Source: Escherichia phage SUT_E420. Taken from it: a stretch of 64,000 bases of DNA. The stretch's first letter is position 1, and the number at the start of each line of letters is the position of its first letter. The notes below the pieces were generated by a model. It was not told the origin of the DNA and did not search any database. It worked only from the letters and a program-made list of their open reading frames with translations. The stretch lies in the sequence record OQ990039. One strand, written 5' to 3'. Position numbers and translations under genes: made by a program. This document shows positions 7,700 to 48,204 of this stretch, in pieces.

Positions 7700-7770
7700 A
7701 CCGACCGTAGGATTCGAACCTACATCTTCCACCAGTTACGGCTTGATAATACCAATTATACTAGGACGGC
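7700..7770 (-). ncRNA. tRNA-like element (T-arm and acceptor present, no anticodon stem)
   Basis: Perfect T-arm GTAGG-TTCGAAT-CCTAC, 3' acceptor GGTCGGT, D-loop GG, but no foldable anticodon stem and no encoded CCA; possibly the 3' module of a longer structured RNA. Confidence 0.3.
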
Positions 7771-8703: not shown

Positions 8704-9171
8704 TTAAGTTTTAGTGACAACAGGTTTATAGAATGTATGTCCCTTAATCTTAGTTGTTTTCTTAAACTTCTTTGTCCAGTAAGGTTTATCTTTACCACTA
8801 TGGAAGTATAGTGCTCCATATGTAGGATCTTGTGGTAAATCAACGTAGTATATCACTCTAGCTAAATTCTTAGCGGTTTGCCAAGCCTCATCAGTTTTAT
8901 CAACTTTTGGTCTCTTAGATACCCAAGAGAACTGGTTAGACTGATATACTACTTTACAGTAGGAATCTGGGAATTTACCGGAGTTTACACGGTTTTTAGT
9001 AACATGTGCAATCGCCGTCATTCCCTTTATGCCCTCACCACGACTTTCGAAATAGATATTTTTAGCAATGCAATCTATTTCTTTTGCATCGTGCGATGCC
9101 TGACTACTAAAGCTGAAGGTAAGGGCAGCTACTAAAAGCAAAGCTGCCTTCATTCTTTTTACTCCTGCCAA
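8704..9171 (-). CDS. secreted cell-wall hydrolase, SleB/CwlJ (Hydrolase_2)-like (155 aa)
   Basis: Signal peptide (MKAALLLVAALTFSFSSQA) then NIYFESRGEGIKGMTAIAHVTKNRV...FPDSYCKVVYQSNQFSW, matching the Hydrolase_2 core. Confidence 0.55.
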   Translation of the reverse strand: MAGVKRMKAALLLVAALTFSFSSQASHDAKEIDCIAKNIYFESRGEGIKGMTAIAHVTKNRVNSGKFPDSYCKVVYQSNQFSWVSKRPKVDKTDEAWQTAKNLARVIYYVDLPQDPTYGALYFHSGKDKPYWTKKFKKTTKIKGHTFYKPVVTKT

Positions 9172-9476
9172 TCATATTCAACACGATTGGGATTTTCTTT
9201 ATACCCTAAGTCAAGCAAATCATTACGCATATTTTGCTTAGCTACTGGGTTCGAGGTTACTAGTACCACTTTCTTTGGTCTCTGCCCAAATTCTAAGAGT
9301 AAACGAAGAATTTGATAACCTTCCATACCATCTACAGCCAAGTCATTATCCATATAAACGAAATGGCCGGTGGTATCAGTTTTATTCAGAAACTCTACAG
9401 CGGCTTCTGGGGTTCGAATGATAATGTCCATTCCGTGAAGATTACGCACATCATCAATCAAAATATGAAAAGTCAT
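9159..9476 (-). CDS. receiver (REC)-like domain protein (105 aa)
   Basis: N-terminal ILIDDVR, central YMDNDL and VVLVTSNP resemble a receiver fold; weak assignment. Confidence 0.3.
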   Translation of the reverse strand: MTFHILIDDVRNLHGMDIIIRTPEAAVEFLNKTDTTGHFVYMDNDLAVDGMEGYQILRLLLEFGQRPKKVVLVTSNPVAKQNMRNDLLDLGYKENPNRVEYDWQE

Positions 9477-9506
9477 AATAGCCTCGTTTCATCAATTTAA
9501 AAATAT

Positions 9507-9535
9507 ATTATACAGATAACTTAGTAACTTAGTAA
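9507..9535 (-). promoter_or_regulatory. sigma70-type early promoter (minus) with degenerate -35 (TTACTA) next to an 8-bp tandem duplication
   Basis: Plus strand ATTATA-N17-TAGTAA; CTTAGTAA is duplicated in tandem so the family-consensus TAGCAA lies 25 bp from the -10. Confidence 0.5.
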
Positions 9536-9926
9536 ATTAGCAAATACATTTTTAAATTGTGAAACTAGTAAACCGATAAACAGCCTAGAGGCGCCACAGG
9601 CCATATCTTATGAGCCATGTACCTTTGATCTAGGGTTTGAATCATCAACGAATACTTTGCATCTTTTAGCTTTAGAAGTTTAGAAGTTTGAGTTCTTTAA
9701 ACTTTTCAGCTTTCATACTTAAATGTTGATCTTTGAAGTTGTGTCGGTAATATCAACGACGCTTTGTTCTTACGTGTCAGCTTAAAAGGCTGGTGTAATA
9801 AACATAATCTCCAATAGATTATACTTTATAGTATGGTCAGCGGTCTTATTTAACCCCGTATTTCAACCGCTGCTGCGAGGTAAGATGCTTGGGCTTTCGT
9901 CTACCGATTTACTAGCTTTTAAATTA

Positions 9927-23423: not shown

Positions 23424-23465
23424 GCTAATCAGCCGGGTTGCTAGTCGACCTGGCTTTTATTTTAT

Positions 23466-23494
23466 TTGCTTTCAGCCAAAAATTTATATATAAT
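23466..23494 (+). promoter_or_regulatory. sigma70-type early promoter (plus): -35 TTGCTT, 17-bp spacer, -10 TATAAT, with conserved leader
   Basis: Followed by TAGATTTATAAATTTGAGAGGAG, the shared early-leader element ending in the ribosome-binding site. Confidence 0.7.
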
Positions 23495-23522
23495 AGATTT
23501 ATAAATTTGAGAGGAGAAAGGT

Positions 23523-23903
23523 ATGGAATTAAAGCCCTATATAGTTGAGTCTACATGTGGTGGTTTCCATCTTGGCGTAGACGATCTTAGAGAAGCTATT
23601 TTTGCATCTACTGGAGATTATTCCCATCTAGAGGGTATTGGATATTCATCAATTATTGGTGATTGGGTAGAAACAAATCTAGATGTATCACCATATAACT
23701 CAGATTGCTTGTTTGACGAGGATGAGGATGAAATAAAGTATGATATTGAATTTGTTTATAATAGAGTATTAAAAGTATACCAACGTAATCCCGAGGGATA
23801 CGAAGATATTACTAAAGGTATTAAACAGTATCTTAAAGATGTATACTATAATTTTTCTGATGAAGACCTAGAAACAGTTGCAGTGGAGTTTAATAATGGC
23901 TAA
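23523..23903 (+). CDS. hypothetical acidic protein (126 aa)
   Basis: First gene of the overlapping-gene operon 23523-26423. Confidence 0.45.
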   Translation: MELKPYIVESTCGGFHLGVDDLREAIFASTGDYSHLEGIGYSSIIGDWVETNLDVSPYNSDCLFDEDEDEIKYDIEFVYNRVLKVYQRNPEGYEDITKGIKQYLKDVYYNFSDEDLETVAVEFNNG

Positions 23904-24102
23904 GAATGTAAAACATCTTAAATATCGCTTAATTTACAATGGACGTATGGAAACAGAAGACCTGGCCCAATTAGCTATTAATTCTAACGAGGTTACAGTG
24001 CGTGCGCTGGCAATTGAAAAGTTGCGTGCCTCTTATGAAAATCGTGTTATGGAACTAGAGGAGAAACTTTATGGCATTCTCGAAGCCGATGCTACCAGAT
24101 AA
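23896..24102 (+). CDS. hypothetical small protein (about 68 aa)
   Basis: Start taken at MAKNVK; overlaps both flanking genes. Confidence 0.35.
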   Translation: MAKNVKHLKYRLIYNGRMETEDLAQLAINSNEVTVRALAIEKLRASYENRVMELEEKLYGILEADATR

Positions 24103-24292
24103 GGGTTTAAACGCCGCTTTGGAAAACGCATTAATGCAGCACTGGGAAACTGGCTATAAGGATGGTGTTGAATCCTGCGCTACTATGCTAGAAGTTATTG
24201 CTAATACCTTAATGGAGAAAGGCAATAAAGAATTAGCTGAGCTATTAGACAGTATTGGGCAAAACTTCAGAGAACAGGTGAAAAATGCGTAG
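24071..24292 (+). CDS. hypothetical small protein (73 aa)
   Basis: Overlaps the upstream ORF and the Sir2-like start. Confidence 0.4.
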   Translation: MAFSKPMLPDKGLNAALENALMQHWETGYKDGVESCATMLEVIANTLMEKGNKELAELLDSIGQNFREQVKNA

Positions 24293-25100
24293 ATTAATTG
24301 TTATTAGCGGTGCAGGTTTGAGTGTTGAAAGTGGTGTACGAGCTTTTCGTACTGATACTGCTAGTGGTAAAGCATTGTGGGATGATTATGATCTAGAAGA
24401 AGTATGTAATATTCATGCCTTTCGTGGTAATTTTTATCATAAAACCCATATGTTTTACAACAAGCGTCGTGAAGAGCTAAAAACTGTTGAACCCAATCTT
24501 GCGCATTTGCGTATCGGTGAATGGTATAAACAATATCCAGGTCAAGTAGTAAACTTGACTACCAACGTTGATGACCTTATTGAGCGTTCTGGCGTTCCAC
24601 ATAATGACATTCTACACATTCATGGATATTTAAAAGAGGTTGTTGTAGCTGATAGCTACAATAGTAGCAATAAACGGATTATTGATGTAGGATACAATTC
24701 TATTGATCCAGATGATTATAAATGGGTTAAACCTAATGTAATCTTCTTTGGAGAGCATGCTCCAGCATATGCGGAGATGTACAATGTTTTTGATGGTATT
24801 ACCAGTCAAGATATGATCATTGTGGTTGGTTGCTCTAACCAAGTAATTAACTTCTACTGGGAATTATTTCCTGTTCTTAATTTGACTGCTGCCAAGCTAA
24901 TGGTTGTTAACTACTATGATAGTGCCCTAGCGGCGGAACCGAGCTATCAAGGTATGACTCGTAGTGAGATGTACCAGCTGGAAGAACGCGGTATCCCTTA
25001 CTGGGGTAAAGGTGCGGTAGATGCTTTCAGTGATCCTGATTTTATTGCTCGTGTAGAAGCTCATTTAGGGGGTAGACCTTATGTGTCAGGAAATAAGTAA
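24285..25100 (+). CDS. Sir2-family (sirtuin-like) NAD-binding protein (271 aa)
   Basis: GAGLSVESGVRAFR matches the Sir2 signature GAGISxxSGIPxFR; downstream TTNVDDLIERSG and HIHGYL parallel the catalytic-region motifs; no CxxC zinc module visible. Confidence 0.7.
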   Translation: MRRLIVISGAGLSVESGVRAFRTDTASGKALWDDYDLEEVCNIHAFRGNFYHKTHMFYNKRREELKTVEPNLAHLRIGEWYKQYPGQVVNLTTNVDDLIERSGVPHNDILHIHGYLKEVVVADSYNSSNKRIIDVGYNSIDPDDYKWVKPNVIFFGEHAPAYAEMYNVFDGITSQDMIIVVGCSNQVINFYWELFPVLNLTAAKLMVVNYYDSALAAEPSYQGMTRSEMYQLEERGIPYWGKGAVDAFSDPDFIARVEAHLGGRPYVSGNK

Positions 25101-25593
25101 TACTCCAATTATTTTTCTAGACATTGATGGGGTGCTCAATTCGAGCATCTCCCACTATCATGCACCTGATGATGAAAAGATTTTCTTTGGAAGTGATTGG
25201 GTTTTCAAACCGCTTCTCAAGGCTTTTCAGGACTTTATTCGTCCTTCTCCAATAATGATTGTTGGAGTATCATCTTGGTTCTCTGTCAGAAATGAGATGG
25301 AGAACGTTCAGATTATGACCGGATTAGGCCTTATCGATCGTTTTCTTGGTACAACGGATTTTACTGGTGGTGGATTATCTAGGGGTAATTCTGTTCTTCG
25401 CTTCGTTGAAAAGCATAAGCTCAAACATTGGTGTGTGCTTGATGATGCGGGTGCTATGATGTATCAGTATCCAACGGTTATAGTCAACGGTAGGACTGGT
25501 ATAAATCTTCAAGATTTAAAAGCTGTTAGCTATATGCTAGAATTTAGCCCAGATCTTGAAATGTGTAAATCCTTACAACAATTTAAGGTGTAA
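25081..25593 (+). CDS. HAD-superfamily hydrolase-like protein (170 aa)
   Basis: IIFLDIDGVLNS resembles HAD motif I (DxDG); later CVLDDAG may be motif IV; overlaps the Sir2 gene by 20 nt. Confidence 0.4.
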   Translation: MCQEISNTPIIFLDIDGVLNSSISHYHAPDDEKIFFGSDWVFKPLLKAFQDFIRPSPIMIVGVSSWFSVRNEMENVQIMTGLGLIDRFLGTTDFTGGGLSRGNSVLRFVEKHKLKHWCVLDDAGAMMYQYPTVIVNGRTGINLQDLKAVSYMLEFSPDLEMCKSLQQFKV

Positions 25594-25595
25594 AT

Positions 25596-26024
25596 ATGTT
25601 CAATAATGTATTCTCTAAAGAAGCTAACCCAATTTTGGTTAACTTTTGGCGTACTCTTCCAGCTAGCCTGTATAATGAGGCTATTAACTCTTTGAAAATA
25701 TGGTGTGAGAATAACGAAATCTACTTTGCTTTTAAAGATGATATTGATGAAGCCCCCTGTATTGGTTTAATTGTTCAGGTAGAGGAGGGTCTTGAAGAGA
25801 TTGTCGGCTGGAAAGAGTTAGATGAAATGGGCTTAGTTTTTGCGTTAAACTATAAGCTGTTTATGCCTGCTAAGCATCGCCTCGTTGTTAACTATAAAAC
25901 TAGTGAATCTCCTGGTTTTCAAGTTAATGAACGTTACGGTTGGTCTTACTCACCAGAAGAAGTGAATGATGGTATCCAAAAACTTCGCCGTTTCGGGTAT
26001 ATGATCCCAGGTTTAACTGCTTAA
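25596..26024 (+). CDS. hypothetical protein, paralog A (142 aa)
   Basis: Shares CIG...W.EL.EMGL..ALN..LF.P...Y.P....L.R.GY..PGL with the next ORF. Confidence 0.45.
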   Translation: MFNNVFSKEANPILVNFWRTLPASLYNEAINSLKIWCENNEIYFAFKDDIDEAPCIGLIVQVEEGLEEIVGWKELDEMGLVFALNYKLFMPAKHRLVVNYKTSESPGFQVNERYGWSYSPEEVNDGIQKLRRFGYMIPGLTA

Positions 26025-26033
26025 GGAGGCAGA

Positions 26034-26423
26034 ATGGAACAAGTATATTGGCGTCAGATTGACCCTAGTTTGGTGAAACGTGCGGAGAAGCTGCTACAAC
26101 GTTGGTTGGGGGTAAGACAAGCCTCCTTCACTTTTCCTGAGCAGCAAATAGATGATCCATGCATTGGCGTTTTCCTGTCTGGATACGCCAGGGAATGGGA
26201 ACTGGATTGGAATGAGTTGTCTGCTATGGGTTTAATTGTTGCCCTAAATTTCTCTTTGTTCCATCCACGTGGTTTTGCCATATGTCGTGTGCCGGATGAT
26301 GGTTGTTCGCCCCATCTTTTACAGGTGGAAAATGATATTTGGGAGTACACTCCAGATATTCTCAAAGAAGCTAAAGAACAATTAAACCGTGTTGGGATAT
26401 ATGTTCCGGGATTAAATGACTAA
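26034..26423 (+). CDS. hypothetical protein, paralog B (129 aa)
   Basis: Tandem paralog of 25596-26024; ribosome-binding site AAGGAGG. Confidence 0.45.
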   Translation: MEQVYWRQIDPSLVKRAEKLLQRWLGVRQASFTFPEQQIDDPCIGVFLSGYAREWELDWNELSAMGLIVALNFSLFHPRGFAICRVPDDGCSPHLLQVENDIWEYTPDILKEAKEQLNRVGIYVPGLND

Positions 26424-26449
26424 TGATTTTTATTAGCTGAACTCTGATT

Positions 26450-26475
26450 ACCGAGTCATTTTGGCTCGGTTTTAT
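26450..26475 (+). terminator. rho-independent terminator
   Basis: Stem ACCGAG/CTCGGT with 9-nt loop followed by TTTTA; ends the Sir2 operon. Confidence 0.5.
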
Positions 26476-26517
26476 CCGTACTCAAGACCAATGATAGCAC
26501 CATCCGGAAAATTTTAC

Positions 26518-26546
26518 TTGCAGGATGCTCAAAATCTTGATATAAT
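26518..26546 (+). promoter_or_regulatory. sigma70-type early promoter (plus): -35 TTGCAG, 17-bp spacer, -10 TATAAT
   Basis: Followed by the family leader ATTTATATTGAATTGAGAGA; about 500 nt of non-coding leader follow before the next gene. Confidence 0.6.
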
Positions 26547-27045
26547 ATTTATATTGAATTGAGAGATATTAGTAAAAATTGATTTTGCTAATTTTTCTTG
26601 TTTACAATCCGCGATACGGAACAGTTAGGCTGCCCAATTAAGGGTTGTTTTAACTGTTACGTGTTAGTTTTTAAACAAATAGTTAATAGAATACTTAGCG
26701 ATCTGCGTCCCGTAGGAACCCTGGTAAGGCCTCGAAGCAACCTAGATAGAGGTGGTTGTGAAGTGAGACGGGAGGAGTGAAAAACTCCGAGACGTGATTC
26801 TGTAAGTTATATTGCATCTAGTATGAGCTAGTACATGAAGCATTAGGTGAGCAAATCTGGCTTAGCGGCCATCCTCAAGGATTTGTGCGGTATAGCAAAG
26901 CAGCAGCGCAGCGTGAAAGTGGAAGTTGCCACCCCACTTCAGTATTTGCGATTAATTTGTTGAGAAATTGACAGTAACAGTTGTTCTATTCTTTCTGAAT
27001 AGTCCTAAAGAAAACTTATTTCATTTCCAACACAGGAGTATTGTT

Positions 27046-29460
27046 GTGTTCTCAATCCTACAAGGTCATGCAGGATTTCATCGCGATTTAGCCACAGGCA
27101 ATTGGCGAGAAGTTAAAGCAGAAGACTATCTTTTTGCTAAAAGATTTTCCTCAAAGCATCCTGAAGGTAAACCAGCTTCAATGCCCTTCAAGTTTGATGT
27201 AATTGATGAAGTTGATCCTCAAACCCTAGTAGAAATGCTTCCTCTTATGAGACGTTTAACGTCTGACCCTCATATCGTTGCGGTACGAGGTCGATGTCTT
27301 ACACCTAAAAATAATGTGCGACGTAAGAAGGGCAACTTTAATGTATCTAACCCAAGTCATATAATTGCAATGGACGTGGATGGTATTGTAGATACAGGTG
27401 GTTGCAACAAGTTTGATCTTGTTGGCATGGCTCGACATATTATTAGAATGTTAAATAGTATTAGTGAGGATATGTTTCCTCTTGATGCAGGGTTTATCGC
27501 TCATGCATCGTCTTCGGCTGGGCTNNNNNNNNNNNNNNNNNNNNNNNNNNNNNNNNNNNNNNNNNNNNNNNNNNNNNNNNNNNNNNNNNNNNNNNNNNNN
27601 NNNNNNNNNNNNNNNNNNNNNNNNATGTTAAATAGTATTAGTGAGGATATGTTTCCTCTTGATGCAGGGTTTATCGCTCATGCATCGTCTTCGGCTGGGC
27701 TAAAACCAGGTATCCGAATGCACTTAATACTAGAATCTAATGTTAAAGTAACTCAGGGTCAAATCAAATTCTTATTTACATCTATCAACGAAAGTAGTAG
27801 ACAAAAGTATGGCTTTGATATTGCCGACTTAGCTTATTACTCTTCCGTACAGCTCCACTATTTTGCAGATCCGTTATTTACCGATGGTATAGTAGATCCG
27901 TTTAAAGCGGAGGGTGCTTCACGTCTGGTATTTGTTAAGGGTTCTAAAGTAAATTTACCCAATAATCTGGTTGACTATGAAACAACTAGAGGTGAGTTTA
28001 AGGAGGAGTTTTACTCTTTACTCGATCAAATTAAAGGTAAAAAAGCTGCCTCTGATAAAGTAGAGGAAACTATCAGCGAACTAGAAGAAGCTGAGGATGG
28101 AGTGTATCTACGTATCATACCTAAACTCTATCACAGAGCCTTAGAGGATGGTGTTGATTTTGCATGGCTAGAAAAAGAAATCCGTCCAGCCTTATCAGAA
28201 TATATTGCAACTAAAGATAACAGTCGCAATATTCAAGATTACTTTAATAACGGTCGTAAACAGGCTCTGAAAGCATTTGTTAATAATTCTAAACGTGATA
28301 TACCTGATGTTTTAAAGGGTATTCCACTTAAAAAGCTAGAAACTAATTCTCTAGAAACTGATAACTTCTTGAAATTAAATACTGTACCACCAGAAGGTTA
28401 TATGACTTTTGTAAAAGCAAGTCTAGGTACAGGTAAAACTACAGCGGTTGTGCGTTGGTTAGATTCAGGAGTTATTAAAGGTAATTTCTTAGCAATTACC
28501 AATACTAGAGCACTGGTATCTTCAAATGCCAAGAAATTTAGTGCAGGACAATATGATAAGTCTGTAGATATGCTTAATTTTAAGCGGGGTGCTATTGACC
28601 GTATGTCCACAACTATTCACTCTTTGCATAAATTCAAGAGTTTTATTGGTCAAATTGATGCAATCTTTATCGATGAATGTGATGCAGTAATGAATGACCT
28701 ATTATTCGCCCCGGTTGTTAAACAACGTCGCGAGTGTATTCAGGTTCTTCGGGATATTCTTGCAACTGCAAAAATCATTATATTATCTGATGGGGATATT
28801 AGTGCAGAAACAATTGAAGCATATGGTTCTTTGATTGAGTTTGATAAACCAGTAGCATTTTATAACCATCACCGTAAAATGCTATCAAAAGCTCATGCTT
28901 ATGAGTTCCCGGATGAATCCAGTATTTGGGTTGCACTTCAGACTTCTCTAGAGATGGGTGAGAAATCTATCCTAGTATCTGACTGTGGGCCGGATGAACT
29001 GAATGAGAAGGGTATGGCATTGCGTCGTAATACGGGTGCGTTAGTTAAGGAAATCCACTCAAANNNNNNNNNNNNNNNNNNNNNNNNNNNNNNNNNNNNN
29101 NNNNNNNNNNNNNNNNNNNNNNNNNNNNNNNNNNNNNNNNNNNNNNNNNNNNNNNNNNNNNNNGATATTAAGAAGTGTTCAAATGTCACTATCAAACCAT
29201 TCATAGAAGCTCTGAAAGGTAAGAAGAAAGATTTCTTCCTTAAAACAGGTCAGAGTGCTAACCCAAAATATGCCAGAATGTATCTTGGTATGATGGGTAT
29301 TGGTAAGGATATGAACACTGAAAATATTGTAGACTGGTACAGAACCTATTGTAAAATCGAGTGTATGCCAATCCCCTATAAGTTTATGACTGATGAGGAG
29401 AAACATATGCATGATGAAGCAATGGCAGAGCTAGGTGCTAGAAATGACAGTGAAGAATAA
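27046..29460 (+). CDS. large P-loop ATPase/helicase-like replication protein, putative origin-binding protein (interrupted by two gaps)
   Basis: Walker A LGTGKTT and Walker B IFIDECD; start set at GTG 27046 with ribosome-binding site ACAGGAG; gap at 27525-27624 is a duplication artefact, gap at 29064-29163 hides real sequence. Confidence 0.5.
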   Translation: MFSILQGHAGFHRDLATGNWREVKAEDYLFAKRFSSKHPEGKPASMPFKFDVIDEVDPQTLVEMLPLMRRLTSDPHIVAVRGRCLTPKNNVRRKKGNFNVSNPSHIIAMDVDGIVDTGGCNKFDLVGMARHIIRMLNSISEDMFPLDAGFIAHASSSAGXXXXXXXXXXXXXXXXXXXXXXXXXXXXXXXXXXMLNSISEDMFPLDAGFIAHASSSAGLKPGIRMHLILESNVKVTQGQIKFLFTSINESSRQKYGFDIADLAYYSSVQLHYFADPLFTDGIVDPFKAEGASRLVFVKGSKVNLPNNLVDYETTRGEFKEEFYSLLDQIKGKKAASDKVEETISELEEAEDGVYLRIIPKLYHRALEDGVDFAWLEKEIRPALSEYIATKDNSRNIQDYFNNGRKQALKAFVNNSKRDIPDVLKGIPLKKLETNSLETDNFLKLNTVPPEGYMTFVKASLGTGKTTAVVRWLDSGVIKGNFLAITNTRALVSSNAKKFSAGQYDKSVDMLNFKRGAIDRMSTTIHSLHKFKSFIGQIDAIFIDECDAVMNDLLFAPVVKQRRECIQVLRDILATAKIIILSDGDISAETIEAYGSLIEFDKPVAFYNHHRKMLSKAHAYEFPDESSIWVALQTSLEMGEKSILVSDCGPDELNEKGMALRRNTGALVKEIHSXXXXXXXXXXXXXXXXXXXXXXXXXXXXXXXXXXDIKKCSNVTIKPFIEALKGKKKDFFLKTGQSANPKYARMYLGMMGIGKDMNTENIVDWYRTYCKIECMPIPYKFMTDEEKHMHDEAMAELGARNDSEE
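27525..27624. other. assembly gap (100 N) flanked by identical 77-bp copies
   Basis: 27448-27524 is identical to 27625-27701; adds 59 artefactual codons to the ORF. Confidence 0.85.
29064..29163. other. assembly gap (100 N) without flanking duplication
   Basis: Flanks differ, so the true missing length is unknown. Confidence 0.8.
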
Positions 29461-32259: not shown

Positions 32260-33231
32260 ATGACCAATGTAAAAGACTTTATTAAACGTTGCCAAGAAGC
32301 ATATTATCAAGGTATGTCTTTAATCTCTGATGAAGAGTATGATTGCCTGGTAAAACGCTTTCCGTTAGAAGAAGAGATCGGACCTAAGGGCGATATTCCA
32401 CATCTGTATCGTATGTATTCTTTACAGAAAGTTTATTATAATCGTGGAGATAAACCTCCGTTTAACCCGTTAGGTCAAGTAGAAACTGATAAGTTAGATG
32501 GTTGTGCAATTTCTCTGTTATATATTAATGGCGAATTTGTTCAAGCACTAACTCGTGGTAATGGTATTCTAGGGAATGATGTCACAAGCAACGTAAGATT
32601 GCTGAATATCCCTAAAAAGATTTCCCAAAAAGTACCTACTCAAATCACTGGTGAAGTTCTAATTACAAAAGAAGTAGAAAATAAACGTAACTTTGCCTCT
32701 GGTGCTATTAACCTCAAAGATAGTGATGATTTTGTACAACGTATCGGAGAAGGTGGTTTAATCTTCGTTGCATATGGTATCCAGTGTTCTGCTGAATCTG
32801 TAGGTATTACAGAAGCATATTTAAAAGATATGCTTTGGCTGGAGAATGAGAACTTCTTAACAGTTGTTAATGTGCGTTCCTTCTTTAAATGGATTCCGAC
32901 GGATGGTAAAGTTGTTCGTATTAATGACAACAACAAATTCTTCCGTGAAGGCTGGACTAATAAATTCCCTCGTGGAGCATTCGCTATTAAAGAGGATGAA
33001 GAAGGCGAGGTTACAACTCTTACTAAAGTTGAATGGCAGGTAGGGGCTTCTGGTAAAGTAACTCCAGTTGGTTATTTCGAACCGGTAATTATTGATGATG
33101 CTACAATTGTTAAAGCGACTCTTAATAACGTTGATTATATTAACTCTCTTGATCTAGAGATCGGTTGCCAGATTCGAGTGATTCGTGCTGGTGGTGTAAT
33201 CCCGTGCATAGTAGAGCGAGTATACGAGTAA
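32260..33231 (+). CDS. NAD-dependent DNA ligase, N-terminal part (adenylation domain)
   Basis: 323 aa; nucleotidyltransferase motif I KLDG (VETDKLDGCAISLLY) and LigA-like Ia region. Confidence 0.7.
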   Translation: MTNVKDFIKRCQEAYYQGMSLISDEEYDCLVKRFPLEEEIGPKGDIPHLYRMYSLQKVYYNRGDKPPFNPLGQVETDKLDGCAISLLYINGEFVQALTRGNGILGNDVTSNVRLLNIPKKISQKVPTQITGEVLITKEVENKRNFASGAINLKDSDDFVQRIGEGGLIFVAYGIQCSAESVGITEAYLKDMLWLENENFLTVVNVRSFFKWIPTDGKVVRINDNNKFFREGWTNKFPRGAFAIKEDEEGEVTTLTKVEWQVGASGKVTPVGYFEPVIIDDATIVKATLNNVDYINSLDLEIGCQIRVIRAGGVIPCIVERVYE

Positions 33232-33433: not shown

Positions 33434-34204
33434 ATGAAAATCGAAATTCCAACACAATGTCCCTCTTGTGGTTCTAAGCTAGATCTTGTCAACGGACAAT
33501 TATTTTGTCGGAATAAGTCCAACTGTCCAGCGCAATCAAGTAAGTTAATTGAGAACTTCTGTACAAAAATGAAGTTAAAGGGTTTTGGTCCAAAAACTAT
33601 TGAGAAGCTGGAGCTGACGAAGATTTCAGAACTATTTTACCTAACCGAAGAAGATTTGGTTAGAGCCGTGGGTAGCAAGGTTGCCGCTAAGTTAATTAGC
33701 GAATTAAATACTAAAGTTCGCGGAGACATTGACTTTGGTTCAGTTCTCGGTTCTTTAGGAATCCCTCTAATTGGAGAGGTTGCAGCAAAGAAATTATCCC
33801 AAAATTGCACTAGCTTCCACGATGTGAAGGCTGACGGCAAGGCTGGAGAAAATTATAAAGCCTGGCTAAATTCCCCACAAGGCAAGGATGTTATCGAATT
33901 ACCGTGGAAATTCTCAACTGGTGCTAAAGCTAAAACCGTCGTTACTGATGATTTAGTTGCCCAGCCAAATGGAATCGCGGTATGTATTACCGGATCTTTG
34001 CAAGACTTTGCAAATCGAACGGATGCAACAAACTATTTAGAAGGTCTAGGATATACGGTTAAGAAATCTGTTACCAAAGACGTCAAATACCTAATCTGTG
34101 AGGATGAATCGAAGCGTTCTTCCTCATCTTATAAGAAAGCCGAAACGAATGGGATAGAAATCCTGTCGATTAAAGAACTATTGGAGAAAAATAATAATGT
34201 CTAA
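33434..34204 (+). CDS. NAD-dependent DNA ligase, C-terminal part (Zn finger, HhH, BRCT)
   Basis: Cys4 Zn finger (CPSCGSKLD...CRNKSNC), helix-hairpin-helix region, BRCT-like C-terminus (IAVCITGSL...YLICED). Confidence 0.7.
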   Translation: MKIEIPTQCPSCGSKLDLVNGQLFCRNKSNCPAQSSKLIENFCTKMKLKGFGPKTIEKLELTKISELFYLTEEDLVRAVGSKVAAKLISELNTKVRGDIDFGSVLGSLGIPLIGEVAAKKLSQNCTSFHDVKADGKAGENYKAWLNSPQGKDVIELPWKFSTGAKAKTVVTDDLVAQPNGIAVCITGSLQDFANRTDATNYLEGLGYTVKKSVTKDVKYLICEDESKRSSSSYKKAETNGIEILSIKELLEKNNNV

Positions 34205-42796: not shown

Positions 42797-42896
42797 NNNN
42801 NNNNNNNNNNNNNNNNNNNNNNNNNNNNNNNNNNNNNNNNNNNNNNNNNNNNNNNNNNNNNNNNNNNNNNNNNNNNNNNNNNNNNNNNNNNNNNNN
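42797..42896. other. assembly gap (100 N) flanked by identical 77-bp copies
   Basis: 42720-42796 is identical to 42897-42973. Confidence 0.85.
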
Positions 42897-42984: not shown

Positions 42985-44139
42985 ATGAGAATATTATTTA
43001 GTGCTGATCATCATATCAAACTAGGACAAGATAAAGTTCCAAAGGAATGGCAGAAGCGTCGCTTCCTGATGCTAGGAGAACGGTTAAATGATATATTCCA
43101 TAATCATAACTGTGATCTTCATATTGCTGGTGGTGATATACTTGATGTTGCCGACCCGTCGTCAGAAGAAATAGAACTGCTTGAACAGTTCATGTCAAGA
43201 CTTGACCATCCAGGCAAAATCTTTACTGGAAATCATGAAATGTTAACGAAAACCATTTCATGTCTATATCATTATGCAGGAGTTATTAATAAAGTAACGA
43301 GTGGTAAGTGGGAAGTAATTACCAAACCATATCGTTCCCCTGAATTTGATATTGTTCCATATGACGAAATCCATAAATCTAAGTGGAAACCATCTGAATC
43401 AAAACTATGTTTCACGCATGTTCGTGGTGAAATCCCTCCACATGTAAAACCAGANNNNNNNNNNNNNNNNNNNNNNNNNNNNNNNNNNNNNNNNNNNNNN
43501 NNNNNNNNNNNNNNNNNNNNNNNNNNNNNNNNNNNNNNNNNNNNNNNNNNNNNNTCTAAGTGGAAACCATCTGAATCAAAACTATGTTTCACGCATGTTC
43601 GTGGTGAAATCCCTCCACATGTAAAACCAGAAATTGATCTAACTAAGTACAACTGTTATGATACTGTAATTGCTGGCGATTTACATTCTTATACTAATAG
43701 CCAGACTATCGGATCTACTAGACTCCTCTACCCAGGGTCTCCATTAACTACATCGTTCCATAGAGAACGCACAAAAGGTACAAATGGTTGCTTTATCGTT
43801 GATACCGACACATTAAAAGTAGAATGGATTGAACTCGGTGATTTACCACAACTGATTCGTAAAACAATCGGAGCTGGTGAAGAGATGGAACCTAGTGATT
43901 ATGATCGTGTAGTCTATGAAGTTACTGGTGACGTTGTTCAATTAAAGTCTATCAAAGACTCTGATTTATTAGATAAGAAGATTAACCATCGAGTTACTAA
44001 AGACGCTAAGTTAAATCTTGTTGATCTTGATATGTTAGGCGAACTTGAACTTTACTTCCGTGAAGTTGAGAAGCTATCTCAAGGCGACATTGATAGAATC
44101 TTGGCTAGAGCTGCGAAATATGTCAAAGATTACAATTAA
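42985..44139 (+). CDS. SbcD/Mre11-like nuclease (T5 D12-like)
   Basis: Calcineurin-like phosphoesterase motifs (ILFSADHH, GGDILD, FTGNHE); ORF contains the duplication artefact at 43455-43554. Confidence 0.75.
   Translation: MRILFSADHHIKLGQDKVPKEWQKRRFLMLGERLNDIFHNHNCDLHIAGGDILDVADPSSEEIELLEQFMSRLDHPGKIFTGNHEMLTKTISCLYHYAGVINKVTSGKWEVITKPYRSPEFDIVPYDEIHKSKWKPSESKLCFTHVRGEIPPHVKPXXXXXXXXXXXXXXXXXXXXXXXXXXXXXXXXXXSKWKPSESKLCFTHVRGEIPPHVKPEIDLTKYNCYDTVIAGDLHSYTNSQTIGSTRLLYPGSPLTTSFHRERTKGTNGCFIVDTDTLKVEWIELGDLPQLIRKTIGAGEEMEPSDYDRVVYEVTGDVVQLKSIKDSDLLDKKINHRVTKDAKLNLVDLDMLGELELYFREVEKLSQGDIDRILARAAKYVKDYN
43455..43554. other. assembly gap (100 N) flanked by identical 77-bp copies
   Basis: 43378-43454 is identical to 43555-43631. 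Confidence 0.85.
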
Positions 44140-46489
44140 GACACTAAAATTTAGTAACGTTATGTCTTACGGTAAGGACATCGTAATTCATNNNNNNNNN
44201 NNNNNNNNNNNNNNNNNNNNNNNNNNNNNNNNNNNNNNNNNNNNNNNNNNNNNNNNNNNNNNNNNNNNNNNNNNNNNNNNNNNNNNNNNNNGAAATATGT
44301 CAAAGATTACAATTAAGACACTAAAATTTAGTAACGTTATGTCTTACGGTAAGGACATCGTAATTCATCTCGATAAGAATCCCGTTACTCAACTAATCGG
44401 GGGCAATGGGCTAGGGAAATCTACAATTGCTACTGTTATTGAAGAACTATTCTATAATAAGAACTCACGCGGTATTAAGAAAGATGCTCTGTTCTCTTGG
44501 TCTTCTCCGAAAAAAGAATACGATATGCACGCTTATTTCTCGAAAGATGAGGATGAGTATGAACTGCATAAAGTAGTTAAGTCAACTGCTAAAGTAACTC
44601 TTATTAAGAATGGGGAAGATATTAGTGGACACACGGCAACCCAAACATACAAGATGATTGAAGAAATTATGGGTGGTGACTTCCAAACATTCACCAAACT
44701 GATTTATCAATCGGTGGGCTCCAATCTAGACTTTCTAAAAGCAACGGATGCAACACGTAAGGCTTTTCTTGTTAACTTGTTCAATCAAGAACAGTATAAA
44801 GAAATGTCAGAAACTATTAAGGCNNNNNNNNNNNNNNNNNNNNNNNNNNNNNNNNNNNNNNNNNNNNNNNNNNNNNNNNNNNNNNNNNNNNNNNNNNNNN
44901 NNNNNNNNNNNNNNNNNNNNNNNGATGCAACACGTAAGGCTTTTCTTGTTAACTTGTTCAATCAAGAACAGTATAAAGAAATGTCAGAAACTATTAAGGC
45001 TGACCGTAAAGAAATAGCAAATACCTTAAACAATTTGCAAGGCCAAATGGCTGTAATTACGAAAATCCTTAATGGAAAGAATAATCTAGGAACTCTACAG
45101 GAACCTGTAGAAGTACCGGAGTTTGATGAAGAACCATTAGCACAAGAACTTACTGAATCGAAAATTAAGGCGGCATTAGCCAAGTCTCAAGAGGCTAATA
45201 TTACTAAATTGCGTAATTTGGACAAAGCTGTACAAGTTGCCGAACAATCTTTCGAACCTTTCAAAAATTTACCCGCGCCCACCGACCAAAACGAAGAGAT
45301 CTCAAGTGTTACGCGTGACCTAACGATTGTGACCTCACGTGCTGGTGAAGTTAAGAAACGTTATCAGAAGTTCAAGCAAGAGGCTTCAAATACTGAATGT
45401 CCTACTTGTGGTACTCATCTGGATACAACTGCCGCTCAAAAAGCAATGGATATGGCTAGAACAGAATATGATCCTCTGTTCAAAGAGAAGCAATCTCTTG
45501 AAGCTAAGCTAGAACAGTTGAGGAAAGAACAACTTGAGTACGTTGCGTATATTAGAGCAAAGGATGCCTTGGATAAAGCAGTGGTAGCTAGGGACGAGTT
45601 CAAAAATTCAATGAGTGATGCTTCTTTTGAAGAACTCAATGTGCAAATCCTACAGGTGCAAATCCGACAATTAGAACAGGAAATCGCTGATGGNNNNNNN
45701 NNNNNNNNNNNNNNNNNNNNNNNNNNNNNNNNNNNNNNNNNNNNNNNNNNNNNNNNNNNNNNNNNNNNNNNNNNNNNNNNNNNNNNNNNNNNNGATGCTT
45801 CTTTTGAAGAACTCAATGTGCAAATCCTACAGGTGCAAATCCGACAATTAGAACAGGAAATCGCTGATGGACGTTCTAAGGTTGCAATTGCCAAAGAGCA
45901 TAATGCAAATGTCGAATTAGCCAATGCAAAATATAAAGCGAAACTAGAACAGATTGAGAAAGCTGAAGCAGAAATGTCCGAGATTACTTCCAAATTAAAT
46001 GAAGTATCAGAAGCTGTTGCTGATCTCGATATTCTGATTGCTGCATTGAAGAATTTAGTAGGATATAAACTAGAGCATAGTGTGAAAGTATTTGAAGAAC
46101 TAATTAATAAATACCTTTCTATTATGACTGGCGGTAAATTCGCACTTGGATTTGAACTTGATGAAACAAAATTACAAGTAGTAATCTTCAATGATGGAAA
46201 TCGTACCAGTATGGAGAACTGCTCTACTGGTCAACAGAGTCGAATTAACCTAGCAACCCTGTTAGCTATTCGGATGCTGTTAACATCTATTAGTAAAGTT
46301 AATATTAATCTTCTATTCCTTGATGAAGTAATTAGCTTTATTGATACGAAAGGACTTGACACTCTTGTTGAATTATTAAACGAGGAAGAAAGTCTAAATT
46401 CTATCATTGTTTCTCATGGGCATACGCATCCACTAGCTCATAAGATTACTGTCAAAAAAGATGCAGAAGGATTTTCCTACTTAGAATAA
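44119..46489 (+). CDS. SbcC/Rad50-like ATPase (T5 D13-like)
   Basis: Start at MSKITIKTLKF; Walker A GGNGLGKST, long central coiled coil, C-terminal signature/Walker B region (LLFLDEV); three duplication artefacts inflate the track ORF by about 177 aa. Confidence 0.7.
44192..44291. other. assembly gap (100 N) flanked by identical 77-bp copies
   Basis: 44115-44191 is identical to 44292-44368. Confidence 0.85.
44824..44923. other. assembly gap (100 N) flanked by identical 77-bp copies
   Basis: 44747-44823 is identical to 44924-45000. Confidence 0.85.
45694..45793. other. assembly gap (100 N) flanked by identical 77-bp copies
   Basis: 45617-45693 is identical to 45794-45870. Confidence 0.85.
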
Positions 46490-46492
46490 AAC

Positions 46493-47152
46493 ATGGCTGT
46501 AGATAGTAGAGAGAAAGGTAAACGTGGTGAATATCAGGTAAGAGATATTCTACGTGAGCGTACAGGTCTTGAGTGGGAACGTGTTCCTGGCTCTGGTGCT
46601 TTTGGCCAGAGCCACGGACTGAAAGGTGACATCTACCTTCCACCACAAAGCGGACACATTAGTAAATACTGCTTCGAAGTTAAGTGGTANNNNNNNNNNN
46701 NNNNNNNNNNNNNNNNNNNNNNNNNNNNNNNNNNNNNNNNNNNNNNNNNNNNNNNNNNNNNNNNNNNNNNNNNNNNNNNNNNNNNNNNNCACGGACTGAA
46801 AGGTGACATCTACCTTCCACCACAAAGCGGACACATTAGTAAATACTGCTTCGAAGTTAAGTGGTATAAAGATGATAATATATCAAGTAATTTATTTAAT
46901 GTTGGTGAATCCACTCTAGAGAAGTGGTGGCAGCAGTGCTCACGTGAAGGTGAGCAGATGAACTCCAAACCTGCATTAATATTCAAAAAAGACAGAGGAC
47001 AGTGGTTAATAGCTTTGGATAGCTCAGACCCAATGGTTGACAACTTAATGAGTCGTACCCATATGGTGTTAAATAAGAAAGACATGGAAATCGTAATTGG
47101 TTTATTTGAACCGTGGCTACATCATGCATCTGTTGAGGACTTAATTAAATAA
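46493..47152 (+). CDS. PD-(D/E)xK-type nuclease-like protein (T5 D14-like)
   Basis: GDIY...FEVKW resembles a PD-(D/E)xK core; contains one duplication artefact (true length about 160 aa). Confidence 0.45.
   Translation: MAVDSREKGKRGEYQVRDILRERTGLEWERVPGSGAFGQSHGLKGDIYLPPQSGHISKYCFEVKWXXXXXXXXXXXXXXXXXXXXXXXXXXXXXXXXXXHGLKGDIYLPPQSGHISKYCFEVKWYKDDNISSNLFNVGESTLEKWWQQCSREGEQMNSKPALIFKKDRGQWLIALDSSDPMVDNLMSRTHMVLNKKDMEIVIGLFEPWLHHASVEDLIK
46690..46789. other. assembly gap (100 N) flanked by identical 77-bp copies
   Basis: 46613-46689 is identical to 46790-46866. Confidence 0.85.
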
Positions 47153-48204
47153 TGAGTAAATCCTGGGGAAAATTTATTGAAGAAGAGGAAGCTGAAATGG
47201 CTTCCCGTCGTAACCTAATGATTGTCGATGGAACTAACTTAGGCTTTCGCTTCAAACATAANNNNNNNNNNNNNNNNNNNNNNNNNNNNNNNNNNNNNNN
47301 NNNNNNNNNNNNNNNNNNNNNNNNNNNNNNNNNNNNNNNNNNNNNNNNNNNNNNNNNNNNNGAGGAAGCTGAAATGGCTTCCCGTCGTAACCTAATGATT
47401 GTCGATGGAACTAACTTAGGCTTTCGCTTCAAACATAACAACAGTAAAAAACCATTTGCCTCAAGTTATGTTTCCACTATTCAGTCTCTAGCAAAATCTT
47501 ATTCTGCTAGAACTACAATAGTTTTAGGAGATAAGGGGAAGTCTGCATTCCGCTTAGAGCATTTACCTGAGTATAAGGGTAATCGAGATGAGAAATACTC
47601 TCAGCGTACGGAAGAGGAGAAAGCGTTAGATGAGCAGTTCTTCGAGTATTTGAAAGATGCTTTCGAGTTATGTGAAACTACATTCCCAACTTTCACTATT
47701 CGGGGTGTAGAAGCAGATGATATGGCAGCTTATATTGTTAAACTGATCGGGCATCTATATGATCACGTTTGGCTGATTTCTACTGATGGTGACTGGGATA
47801 CTTTATTAACTGATAAAGTATCTCGCTTCTCTTTCACAACACGTCGTGAATACCATCTTCGTGATATGTATGAGCATCATAATGTTGACGATGTAGAGCA
47901 GTTTATCTCCCTGAAAGCAATTATGGGTGATTTAGGGGATAATATCCGAGGTGTTGAAGGTATTGGGGCAAAGCGCGGGTATAATATTATTCGTGAATTT
48001 GGTAACGTTCTGGATATTATTGATCAGCTTCCACTGCCTGGAAAACAGAAATATATACAGAATTTAAATGCTTCGGAAGAATTGCTTTATCGAAACCTAA
48101 TTCTGGTTGATTTACCTACCTACTGTGTGGATGCTATTGCTGCTGTAGGTCAAGATGTATTAGATAAATTTACAAAAGATATTTTGGAGATTGCAGAACA
48201 ATGA
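47152..48204 (+). CDS. flap endonuclease / 5'-3' exonuclease (T5 D15-like)
   Basis: After removing the duplication artefact the product is 291 aa; N-terminus MSKSWGKFIEEEEAEMASRRNLMIVDGTNLGFRFKH matches T5 exonuclease as recalled; acidic active-site clusters (VEADD, STDGDWD). Confidence 0.9.
   Translation: MSKSWGKFIEEEEAEMASRRNLMIVDGTNLGFRFKHXXXXXXXXXXXXXXXXXXXXXXXXXXXXXXXXXXEEAEMASRRNLMIVDGTNLGFRFKHNNSKKPFASSYVSTIQSLAKSYSARTTIVLGDKGKSAFRLEHLPEYKGNRDEKYSQRTEEEKALDEQFFEYLKDAFELCETTFPTFTIRGVEADDMAAYIVKLIGHLYDHVWLISTDGDWDTLLTDKVSRFSFTTRREYHLRDMYEHHNVDDVEQFISLKAIMGDLGDNIRGVEGIGAKRGYNIIREFGNVLDIIDQLPLPGKQKYIQNLNASEELLYRNLILVDLPTYCVDAIAAVGQDVLDKFTKDILEIAEQ
47262..47361. other. assembly gap (100 N) flanked by identical 77-bp copies
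   Basis: 47185-47261 is identical to 47362-47438. Confidence 0.85.

Follow-up and report, generated by a model that had tools for sequence, protein, structure and literature searches.

A zinc-less sirtuin and a capless HAD phosphatase are evolutionarily coupled in the early operon of T5-like phages

Why should a T5-like phage encode a sirtuin, and why is the gene for it bound so closely to that for a phosphatase? The question is raised by an operon of Escherichia phage SUT_E420 (sequence record OQ990039), which we analysed within a window of 64,000 nucleotides (nt). Seven open reading frames (ORFs) lie there between one promoter and one terminator at positions 23466-26475, and two of them encode a Sir2-family protein (24285..25100, + strand) and a HAD-like hydrolase (25081..25593, + strand). 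We find that both proteins keep their active-site motifs intact and that their genes are evolutionarily coupled. The locus is the orthologue of the T5.100-T5.107 early operon of phage T5, and the phage is T5-like (Tequintavirus). The operon and the pairing of Sir2 with HAD are already known, as is a published interpretation of the pair linked to nicotinamide adenine dinucleotide (NAD+). What is added here is the persistence of the linkage through a change of gene order, an allele replacement and two deletions; an acidic T5.100-like companion protein; the presence of the HAD in NARP1-like operons of some Vequintavirinae; a linkage in a Prevotellaceae metagenome-assembled genome (MAG); and the finding that the DUF7415 proteins of the operon match no solved fold.

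The Sir2 product, a protein of 271 amino acids (aa) orthologous to T5.102, is a zinc-less, class-III-like sirtuin. It matches the Pfam family SIR2 (PF02146) over positions 1-178 of the 180-position profile with 86 bits against a cut-off of 24 (E 4e-24), which bears out the original prediction of a Sir2-family protein without a zinc module. Its motif GAGLSVESGVRAFR occupies residues 9-22. In an alignment of the viral sirtuin clade (21 members, 50-85% identity) the invariant positions comprise G9, A10, G11, S13, S16, G17, F21, R22, Y58/R61 (YxxR), T92, T93, N94, V95 and D96 (TTNVD), the catalytic H113 with G114, K149, P150, V152, F154, F155 and E157 of a KPNVxFFGE-type motif, G182 and S184 (GxS), and N209. 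The catalytic His/Asn pair is therefore retained, H113 and N94 being invariant across all 21 viral homologues. The Cys4 zinc-ribbon module, on the other hand, is missing: where CobB has its zinc ribbon, the aligned stretch is free of cysteine in all 21 members. Among solved relatives E. coli CobB comes first (6e-29 with the clade profile), followed by archaeal Sir2Af1 and Sir2Af2 and human SIRT5. With CobB and SIRT5 the phage protein shares GAGxS, SGxxxFR, YxxR, the N/D of TQNID, HG, FGE and GxS, and its sequence FYNKRRE, which carries the class-III YxxR motif with Y58 and R61, aligns to FYNARRR of CobB. It differs from them in lacking the zinc ribbon, in reading TTNVD for TQNID with Thr in place of the Gln, in a changed VYP staple (the GTSxxVYP peptide-staple region reads GCSNQVINF) and in falling below the NCBIfam cut-offs for all seven matching models, among them the CobB equivalogs NF001753 (99 bits against 243) and NF040867 (88.7 against 320). 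The clade is present in ~991 phage records, including T5-like, V5-like, phi92-like, jumbo and Vibrio phages.

The original prediction likened this protein to the Sir2 domains of bacterial anti-phage systems, which are NADases, and a sirtuin of that kind could deplete host NAD+ for host shut-off or superinfection exclusion. The analogy proved weak, and a defence-type reading was dropped once a PADLOC scan of the seven operon proteins gave no defence-family match: at E values up to 0.01 none of them hit the SIR2 or other NAD+-depleting defence models, and the sole, weak match was between orf1 and a Type I methyltransferase model (E 0.0055). The protein is instead a CobB/SIRT5-like 'true' sirtuin of PF02146. 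The window also carries a split NAD+-dependent DNA ligase, encoded by ligA and ligB (32260-33228 and 33434-34201; 96-99% identical to T5) ~6-8 kb downstream of the sirtuin operon. Since the phage encodes this ligase, its own replication relies on the cofactor that the sirtuin would consume, and a phage-borne NAD+-depleting enzyme ~7 kb upstream of it seems very improbable. To judge from its motifs, the protein is apparently a divergent 'true' sirtuin and a predicted active NAD+-consuming enzyme, not a defence-type NADase.

The partner of the sirtuin, a 170-aa protein orthologous to T5.105, belongs to the capless HAD_SAK_2 phosphatase family (PF18143), which it matches with 71.9 bits against a cut-off of 27.5 (E 9e-20) over positions 1-138 of 139, in line with the HAD-like hydrolase first proposed. 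All four elements of the HAD motif set are present, that is the DxD nucleophile/acid, the Ser/Thr, the Lys/Arg and the acidic pair: D14, D16, S64, S65, R101 and D121 are invariant across 24 homologues, and D122 is found in at least 90% of them. The structure model is confident (pLDDT 95) and has a Rossmannoid HAD fold. Its nearest folds are capless HADs that act on macromolecule-bound phosphates, namely MDP-1, CTD phosphatases and T4 PNKP. From its sequence and predicted model, the protein looks like a minimal capless phosphatase that is active. It is a stand-alone domain, without the fusion to an RNA-repair kinase or ligase seen in the name-giving SAK proteins, and among distant viral HAD loci an RNA ligase lies within 10 kb in one group only. 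Database labels obscure this gene: both the RefSeq T5 entry (T5.105; our locus L088, 4501-5007) and PHROG 18062 name it 'Sir2 (NAD-dependent deacetylase)', and the mislabel has spread to many T5-like records, which as a result list Sir2 twice.

The linkage of the two genes persists across rearrangements. Each of the 21 T5-like loci sampled has Sir2 and HAD together with the DUF7415 pair. A different order is seen in two distant Demerecviridae, KEY and AAS21, and in two metagenomic lineages (L091 and L093), where HAD is followed by a 116-118-aa ORF, Sir2 and a ~57-aa ORF; these loci are syntenic with the T5-like ones, lying between phoH/nrd and the origin-binding helicase gene, and DUF7415 is absent from them. 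Within the T5-like phages Sir2 (8785-9667 in loci L021-L023) falls into two allele classes, 92-97% and 51-52% identical to that of the window. Epseptimavirus-type loci have the divergent class next to a HAD that is ~90% identical, which indicates that the Sir2 allele was replaced and the HAD kept. The two genes are also lost together. Independent natural deletions in DT57C and SelmaRatti (Bas34) take the catalytic parts of both Sir2 and HAD and leave the DUF7415 pair intact: in SelmaRatti the remnant joins Sir2 residues 1-103 to HAD residues 119-170 (L097, 3501-3950), and in DT57C it consists of Sir2 169-216 and HAD 130-170 (L096, 3480-3752). Finally, the pairing recurs outside recognised phages. 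In the Prevotellaceae MAG CADCBZ010000005.1 (L103, 4891-11611) one strand encodes in order a MoxR AAA+ protein, a VWA protein, HAD_SAK_2, a calcineurin-like phosphoesterase, a Zn-ribbon protein, SIR2 and an ADP-ribosylglycohydrolase, and in a second MAG the order is SIR2, SDR, HAD_SAK_2. The Prevotellaceae cluster resembles a conflict-system operon on a bacterial contig, which may be of prophage origin. The functional link between sirtuin and phosphatase that the original prediction put forward is, with two gene orders, joint loss and an unrelated MAG, well supported and appears real as far as comparative genomics can show. Persistent linkage and joint loss together imply that the pair behaves as one dispensable functional unit that does not include DUF7415; this module is accessory and dispensable in the laboratory.

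What, then, does the sirtuin act on? Its substrate is probably something other than an ordinary acetyl-lysine peptide, because the zinc module is lost, the staple region is altered and the scores lie far below the CobB cut-offs. These features bear directly on the standard database annotation, under which the sirtuin would be a CobB-like lysine deacylase (deacetylase or desuccinylase) that resets host or phage protein acylation early in infection, and the HAD an unrelated phosphatase, of nucleotides or sugars, placed next to it by chance. Such a role agrees with the closest solved relatives (CobB, then Sir2Af1/Af2 and SIRT5) and with the invariant Y58-x-x-R61, H113 and N94/D96, and the same activity has been proposed for sirtuins of Vibrio phages, in a study that notes zinc-less sirtuins in those phages and discusses Sir2 as conserved in T5 (PMC5107563). 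It is harder to reconcile with the absence from the whole clade of the zinc ribbon, which forms half of the peptide cleft, with the altered VYP staple, and with scores of about one third of the NCBIfam CobB cut-offs. Nor would it account for a HAD linkage that outlasts rearrangement, allele exchange and joint loss, or for the linkage of the clade elsewhere to RNA ligase and phosphoesterases. We therefore regard a deacylase with an unrelated phosphatase beside it as somewhat unlikely.

We tentatively prefer a two-step NAD+-dependent pathway, in which the sirtuin would transfer an ADP-ribosyl group to a phosphate-bearing RNA or nucleotide and the HAD would then remove a phosphomonoester. The proposal draws on how tightly the genes are coupled, on a peptide-binding zinc module that is gone and a VYP staple that is altered, on the company of RNA ligase and phosphoesterases, on the capless fold of the HAD and on the link of the HAD to NARP1. 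Its substrates, step order and biological role are inferred. In the first step the sirtuin would move ADP-ribose (ADPR) from NAD+ onto the phosphate-bearing substrate with release of nicotinamide; in the published version of this step, RNA 2'-phosphates would be removed in the manner of KptA/Tpt1, giving ADPR cyclic phosphate. In the second step the HAD would hydrolyse the phosphomonoester that remains, either at the RNA terminus or on the released ADP-ribose, in which case ADPR-1''-phosphate would become ADPR. This proposed chemistry resembles that of Tpt1/KptA combined with Poa1p/Macro, where attack by a phosphate or acyl nucleophile on C1'' of NAD+ expels nicotinamide and gives ADPR cyclic phosphate, from which a phosphatase then produces ADPR. 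The proteins themselves differ from those systems: the sirtuin does not have the ADP-ribosyltransferase (ART) fold, the HAD is not a Macro domain, and the operon has neither a cyclic phosphodiesterase nor an RNA ligase.

The core of this idea has been published. Iyer, Burroughs, Anantharaman and Aravind (2022; PMC9503650, section 3.7.3) describe a distinct viral sirtuin clade with three types of gene neighbourhood, in one of which, typified by Escherichia phage SP15, the sirtuin accompanies a 'Swiss-army-knife' (SAK) HAD. In that section they predict a KptA-like sirtuin that takes 2'-phosphates off RNA, and associated phosphoesterases that process RNA ends or ADPR cyclic phosphate. That section covers the same gene pair and phage group and makes the same inference as we do, in which an ADP-ribosyl-transferring sirtuin works on phosphorylated RNA ends and the HAD clears phosphates, on purely computational grounds, and its description fits the window, where a sirtuin of the distinct clade is adjacent to a SAK-type HAD and overlaps it. 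In the searched passages of that paper there is no report of a T5.100-like partner, of natural double deletions, of the other gene order or of a link between the HAD and NARP1-like operons. The RNA-repair company of the clade is illustrated by Proteus phage Mydo (L090, 1586-11081), where a same-clade Sir2 (62% identity) shares its operon with a metallophosphoesterase and an RNA ligase and is followed immediately by an ATP-dependent DNA ligase. In the same phage a divergent Adps-like/Namat-like pair, transcribed divergently, lies 5 kb from the Sir2 operon and abuts tRNA genes. This layout means that RNA-repair-type and NAD+-reconstitution-type genes are neighbours in Vequintavirinae.

The HAD family itself has a second context among NAD+-reconstitution genes. 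A HAD homologue of 38-40% identity overlaps or closely precedes an Adps-like gene, itself followed by a Namat-like gene, in NARP1-like operons of Serratia phage ChuuTotoro (L002, 5603-9217), Acinetobacter phage ABPH49 (L003, 5549-9222) and a JGI contig (L095, 7606-11569). A 140-aa ORF resembling a winged helix-turn-helix (wHTH) protein lies upstream at these loci, and a tRNA cluster adjoins them. The Adps-like genes beside the HAD belong to a family that includes those of Felixounavirus and ICP1, and the prototype of NARP1 consists of genes 79-80 of Bas63, a Felixounavirus. The NARP1 intermediate decays to ADPR cyclic phosphate, and some phages add to NARP1 a Macro-domain ADPR-1''-phosphate phosphatase (NARP1-AP), which defeats the RES-type defence aRES. 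In NARP1-AP (Adps, Adpp Macro phosphatase, Namat; Osterman et al. 2026 preprint), as here, a phage phosphatase is attached to NAD+-handling enzymes. The arrangements differ in that the NARP1-AP phosphatase stands between Adps and Namat whereas the ChuuTotoro-like HAD lies upstream of Adps, and in that the T5-like window has no Adps or Namat, a HAD in place of the Macro fold, and a sirtuin as the partner. A term search of the main text of the NARP1 papers found no mention of a HAD as an accessory to NARP1. The link between HAD and NARP1 suggests that the two contexts share an ADPR-phosphate substrate.

Such a substrate is central to another possible explanation, namely that the pair serves counter-defence through small-molecule NAD+/ADPR chemistry that involves no RNA. 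The HAD would be a non-Macro ADPR-phosphate phosphatase and Sir2 would act on a related NAD+-derived metabolite or immune signal. To our knowledge no sirtuin acts on free metabolites, apart from the debated phosphoribosyl transfer by CobB. The substrates of the HAD would be ADPR-1''-P, ADPR-2'-P or opened ADPR cyclic phosphate, each of them yielding ADPR. The NARP1-like operons, the occurrence of their Adps type in Felixounavirus and ICP1, the NARP1 prototype being a Felixounavirus, and the precedent of a phage-added phosphatase that beats aRES are all consistent with this explanation, as are the ADP-ribosylglycohydrolase in the MAG operon and the NAD+ dependence of the phage ligase. Against this, tblastn with the Adps-like and Namat-like proteins of ChuuTotoro found neither gene in the 64-kb window, which implies that the phage alone could not rebuild ADPR into NAD+; capless HADs usually act on macromolecule-bound phosphates; and the NARP1 linkage comes from a single lineage. 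A purely small-molecule route thus seems quite unlikely. A bolder version of the two-step pathway, which we consider speculative and unlikely, would unite both contexts: the zinc-less sirtuin would act on a phosphate nucleophile in a Tpt1-like dephosphorylation of RNA or nucleotide, the HAD_SAK_2 protein would be a non-Macro ADPR-phosphate phosphatase, the two would counter tRNA-cleaving or NAD+-phosphorolysing immunity (aRES), and the HAD of Vequintavirinae would represent a second kind of 'NARP1-AP'.

The first gene of the operon, orf1 (23523..23903, + strand; 126 aa, phrog_11748, E 2e-69), may also belong to this story. Its acidic product, of the T5.100 family, is homologous to the 116-118-aa ORF that separates HAD from Sir2 in the distant Demerecviridae: the ORFs of KEY, AAS21, L091 and L093 are 33-41% identical to it (E ~1e-11) and have a common N-terminal motif. 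A hidden Markov model of the family finds members in 10 of the 21 intact T5-like loci and in KEY, AAS21, L091 and L093/L094, and the ORF is retained in the Sir2/HAD deletion variant SelmaRatti. Compared by BLASTP only, the 116-aa ORF of L095 and Mydo_177 are unrelated to orf1, and Pfam searches of the HAD-adjacent ORFs of ChuuTotoro, KEY, AAS21 and Aes012 gave nothing or only a weak wHTH match. The T5.100-like protein might act together with the Sir2-HAD pair or serve as its substrate. Its recurrence would fit a sirtuin that is a macromolecular ADP-ribosyltransferase, like SirTM or T4 Alt/Mod, modifying either a host protein or the T5.100-like protein, with the HAD at most indirectly involved. 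The target of SirTM, GcvH-L, is likewise small and acidic; here roughly half of the T5-like loci sampled, along with KEY, AAS21, L091 and L093/L094, combine an acidic 116-126-aa protein with Sir2 and HAD, the MAG operon pairs SIR2 with an ADP-ribosylglycohydrolase, and the loss of the zinc module suggests a changed acceptor. In contrast to the SirTM-Macro pair, however, no Macro-domain eraser adjoins the sirtuin gene: Pfam detects no Macro domain in the seven operon products, and no ARH eraser in the operon either. The orf1-like gene is, moreover, missing from about half of the T5-like loci, and the tight HAD linkage would be left unexplained. We judge a transferase of this type improbable.

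Several observations weigh against the two-step pathway that we prefer. At most other HAD_SAK_2 loci (~55 viral and 56 cellular) Sir2 is missing from the surrounding 8-10 kb, the joint deletion of two adjacent genes can be due to chance, and the linkage of the HAD to NARP1 is seen in essentially a single set of close phage relatives. No RNA ligase, polynucleotide kinase or cyclic phosphodiesterase was found in the operon or the 64-kb window, one ligase probe only having been used, so a complete RNA-repair pathway is not encoded here. The class-III YxxR motif is typical of desuccinylases and fits a protein deacylase at least as well. The need of the phage for NAD+ to supply its split LigA/LigB means that NAD+ use by the sirtuin must be limited. 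Our literature search turned up no published experiments on the proteins discussed here, whether the phage sirtuins of this clade or their partners.

The remaining genes of the operon appear to stand apart from the pair. The DUF7415 paralogs a (25596..26024; 142 aa, T5.106 orthologue, E 1e-36) and b (26034..26423; 129 aa, T5.107 orthologue), both on the + strand, match Pfam PF24187 with 125 and 110 bits against a cut-off of 27, and at 31% identity to one another (E 6e-19) they are indeed the tandem paralog pair that had been noticed from the sequence. The confident predicted model of paralog b matches no solved fold. The core of DUF7415, residues 54-118 of paralog b, stands alone in many proteins of 70-160 aa and in one protein (P0241) is fused to a MazZ-like dATP/dGTP pyrophosphohydrolase (PF04447). 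Of the two other small genes, orf2 (23896..24102, + strand; 68 aa, T5.101 family, phrog_5236, E 1e-45) is present in every T5-like locus sampled, and orf3 (24071..24292, + strand; 73 aa, acidic, phrog_5827, E 7e-31) in some of them only, with no match in T5. Pfam and NCBIfam searches returned nothing significant for orf1-3. We considered DUF7415, orf2 and orf3 as parts of a Sir2-HAD machine and rejected this. DUF7415 lies outside the unit because loci of the KEY/AAS21 type do without it and the Sir2/HAD deletions leave it in place, and the paralogs, orf2 and orf3 would be co-transcribed passengers with independent roles.

The anatomy of the operon is that of a single transcription unit, as originally proposed: seven ORFs on the + strand fill 23523-26423 between one promoter and one terminator. 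On the 5' side the operon is bounded by the intrinsic terminator of nrdD (23431..23455, + strand), a 10-bp stem followed by a U-run (folding free energy -15.4, z -3.2), after which comes a sigma-70-type early promoter (23466..23494, + strand) read from the sequence as TTGCTT (23466-23471), a 17-nt spacer and TATAAT (23489-23494). The operon closes with an intrinsic terminator (26450..26475, + strand) whose hairpin at 26450-26470 has a 9-bp stem, ACCGAGUCA/UGGCUCGGU, followed by UUUUAU (folding free energy -13.2, z -3.9). Both boundary hairpins fold much better than shuffled sequence, and both terminators and the ribosome-binding sites are annotated at equivalent places in T5 and Lindwurm. The promoter is annotated in T5 at the equivalent position (55708-55782). 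A consensus scan missed it, since its -35 hexamer matches at three of six positions and the scan required four, and a scan for promoters and terminators does not by itself single out the operon, promoter-like sites occurring at chance level. Because of these chance-level counts the promoter call rests on position and on the T5/Lindwurm annotation. In gene order the six junctions measure -8, -32, -8, -20, +2 and +9 nt, four of them being overlaps, and each of the seven starts is preceded by a Shine-Dalgarno sequence of GGAG/AGGTG type. The start of orf2 was set at the ATG at 23896, as in the Lindwurm annotation; the ORF listing alone gives an upstream TTG. All seven products match conserved phage families in PHROG (E 1e-31 to 1e-119), which identifies them as real genes. 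Host RNA polymerase would transcribe the operon from its one sigma-70-type promoter to its one intrinsic terminator, and the overlapping stop/start junctions may couple translation of the genes. Two details of the original prediction stand in part. Of the three small proteins described as acidic, orf1 (isoelectric point, pI, 4.07) and orf3 (pI 4.78) are so, and orf2 (pI 6.57) is not. The 20-nt overlap of Sir2 and HAD is present here but characterises a sub-lineage only, as T5 and many relatives have T5.103 and T5.104 between the two genes.

In T5 (NC_005859, 55.7-59.0 kb) the T5.100-T5.107 operon has the same position, promoter and terminator as in the window, with protein identities of 93% for Sir2, 98% for the HAD, 92-95% for the DUF7415 pair and 82% for orf1. 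It differs in lacking orf3 and in the two genes between Sir2 and HAD, which leave no overlap there. Over its 3.1 kb the operon region matches Escherichia phages SUT_E1520 and SUT_E520 with 100% identity and many Tequintavirus genomes with 94-97%; 447 phage records match in all. The T5 reference genome record carries a Sir2 annotation, which reportedly goes back to the T5 genome paper.

The surroundings of the operon are equally T5-like and agree with the phage origin first assumed. Hallmarks of the window are a tRNA cluster on the minus strand at 397-7770 (Rfam), nrdD directly upstream of the operon, the origin-binding helicase gene downstream, and the split ligase. An Rfam scan of the whole window matched only the tRNAs at 397-7770, with no match within or beside the operon. 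A non-coding stretch of ~490 nt (26476-26967) separates the operon terminator from the helicase gene and includes two promoter-like sites, at about 26518-26545 and 26579-26608; the 366-nt downstream leader folds no better than shuffled sequence (z -1.2) and has no Rfam match. The region is mosaic: nrdD alleles of T5-like phages (loci L007, L008, L013, L019, L022 and L024) fall into classes of ~93-100% and ~60% identity to the window, and the genes flanking the mosaic Sir2 and nrdD alleles stay ~90% identical. The window also contains twelve runs of 100 Ns, ten of which are bounded by an exact 77-nt direct repeat (5911-6010, 27525-27624, 42797-42896, 43455-43554, 44192-44291, 44824-44923, 45694-45793, 46690-46789, 47262-47361 and 54082-54181). 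Exact repeats of this length indicate that Ns were inserted to join contig ends with a k=77 overlap, a scaffolding artefact that doubles coding sequence, for instance inside the origin-binding helicase gene.

NAD+ is a central battleground between bacteria and phages, and a role of the Sir2-HAD pair in NAD+/ADP-ribose metabolism or counter-defence, as judged from the genes and their neighbourhoods, is plausible; the module would presumably benefit the phage where the host attacks tRNA or other RNA or the NAD+ pool. The T5 group offers a convenient test bed, with DT57C and SelmaRatti/Bas34 as natural double deletions for which near-isogenic intact relatives exist. If the sirtuin does use a phosphate nucleophile, it would be the first sirtuin shown to do so, and if the pair is an NAD+-dependent module for RNA repair or ADPR detoxification, it would bring both a new sirtuin chemistry and a new form of counter-defence. 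As the phage sirtuin clade spans about a thousand sequenced virulent phages, its biochemistry would be widely relevant.

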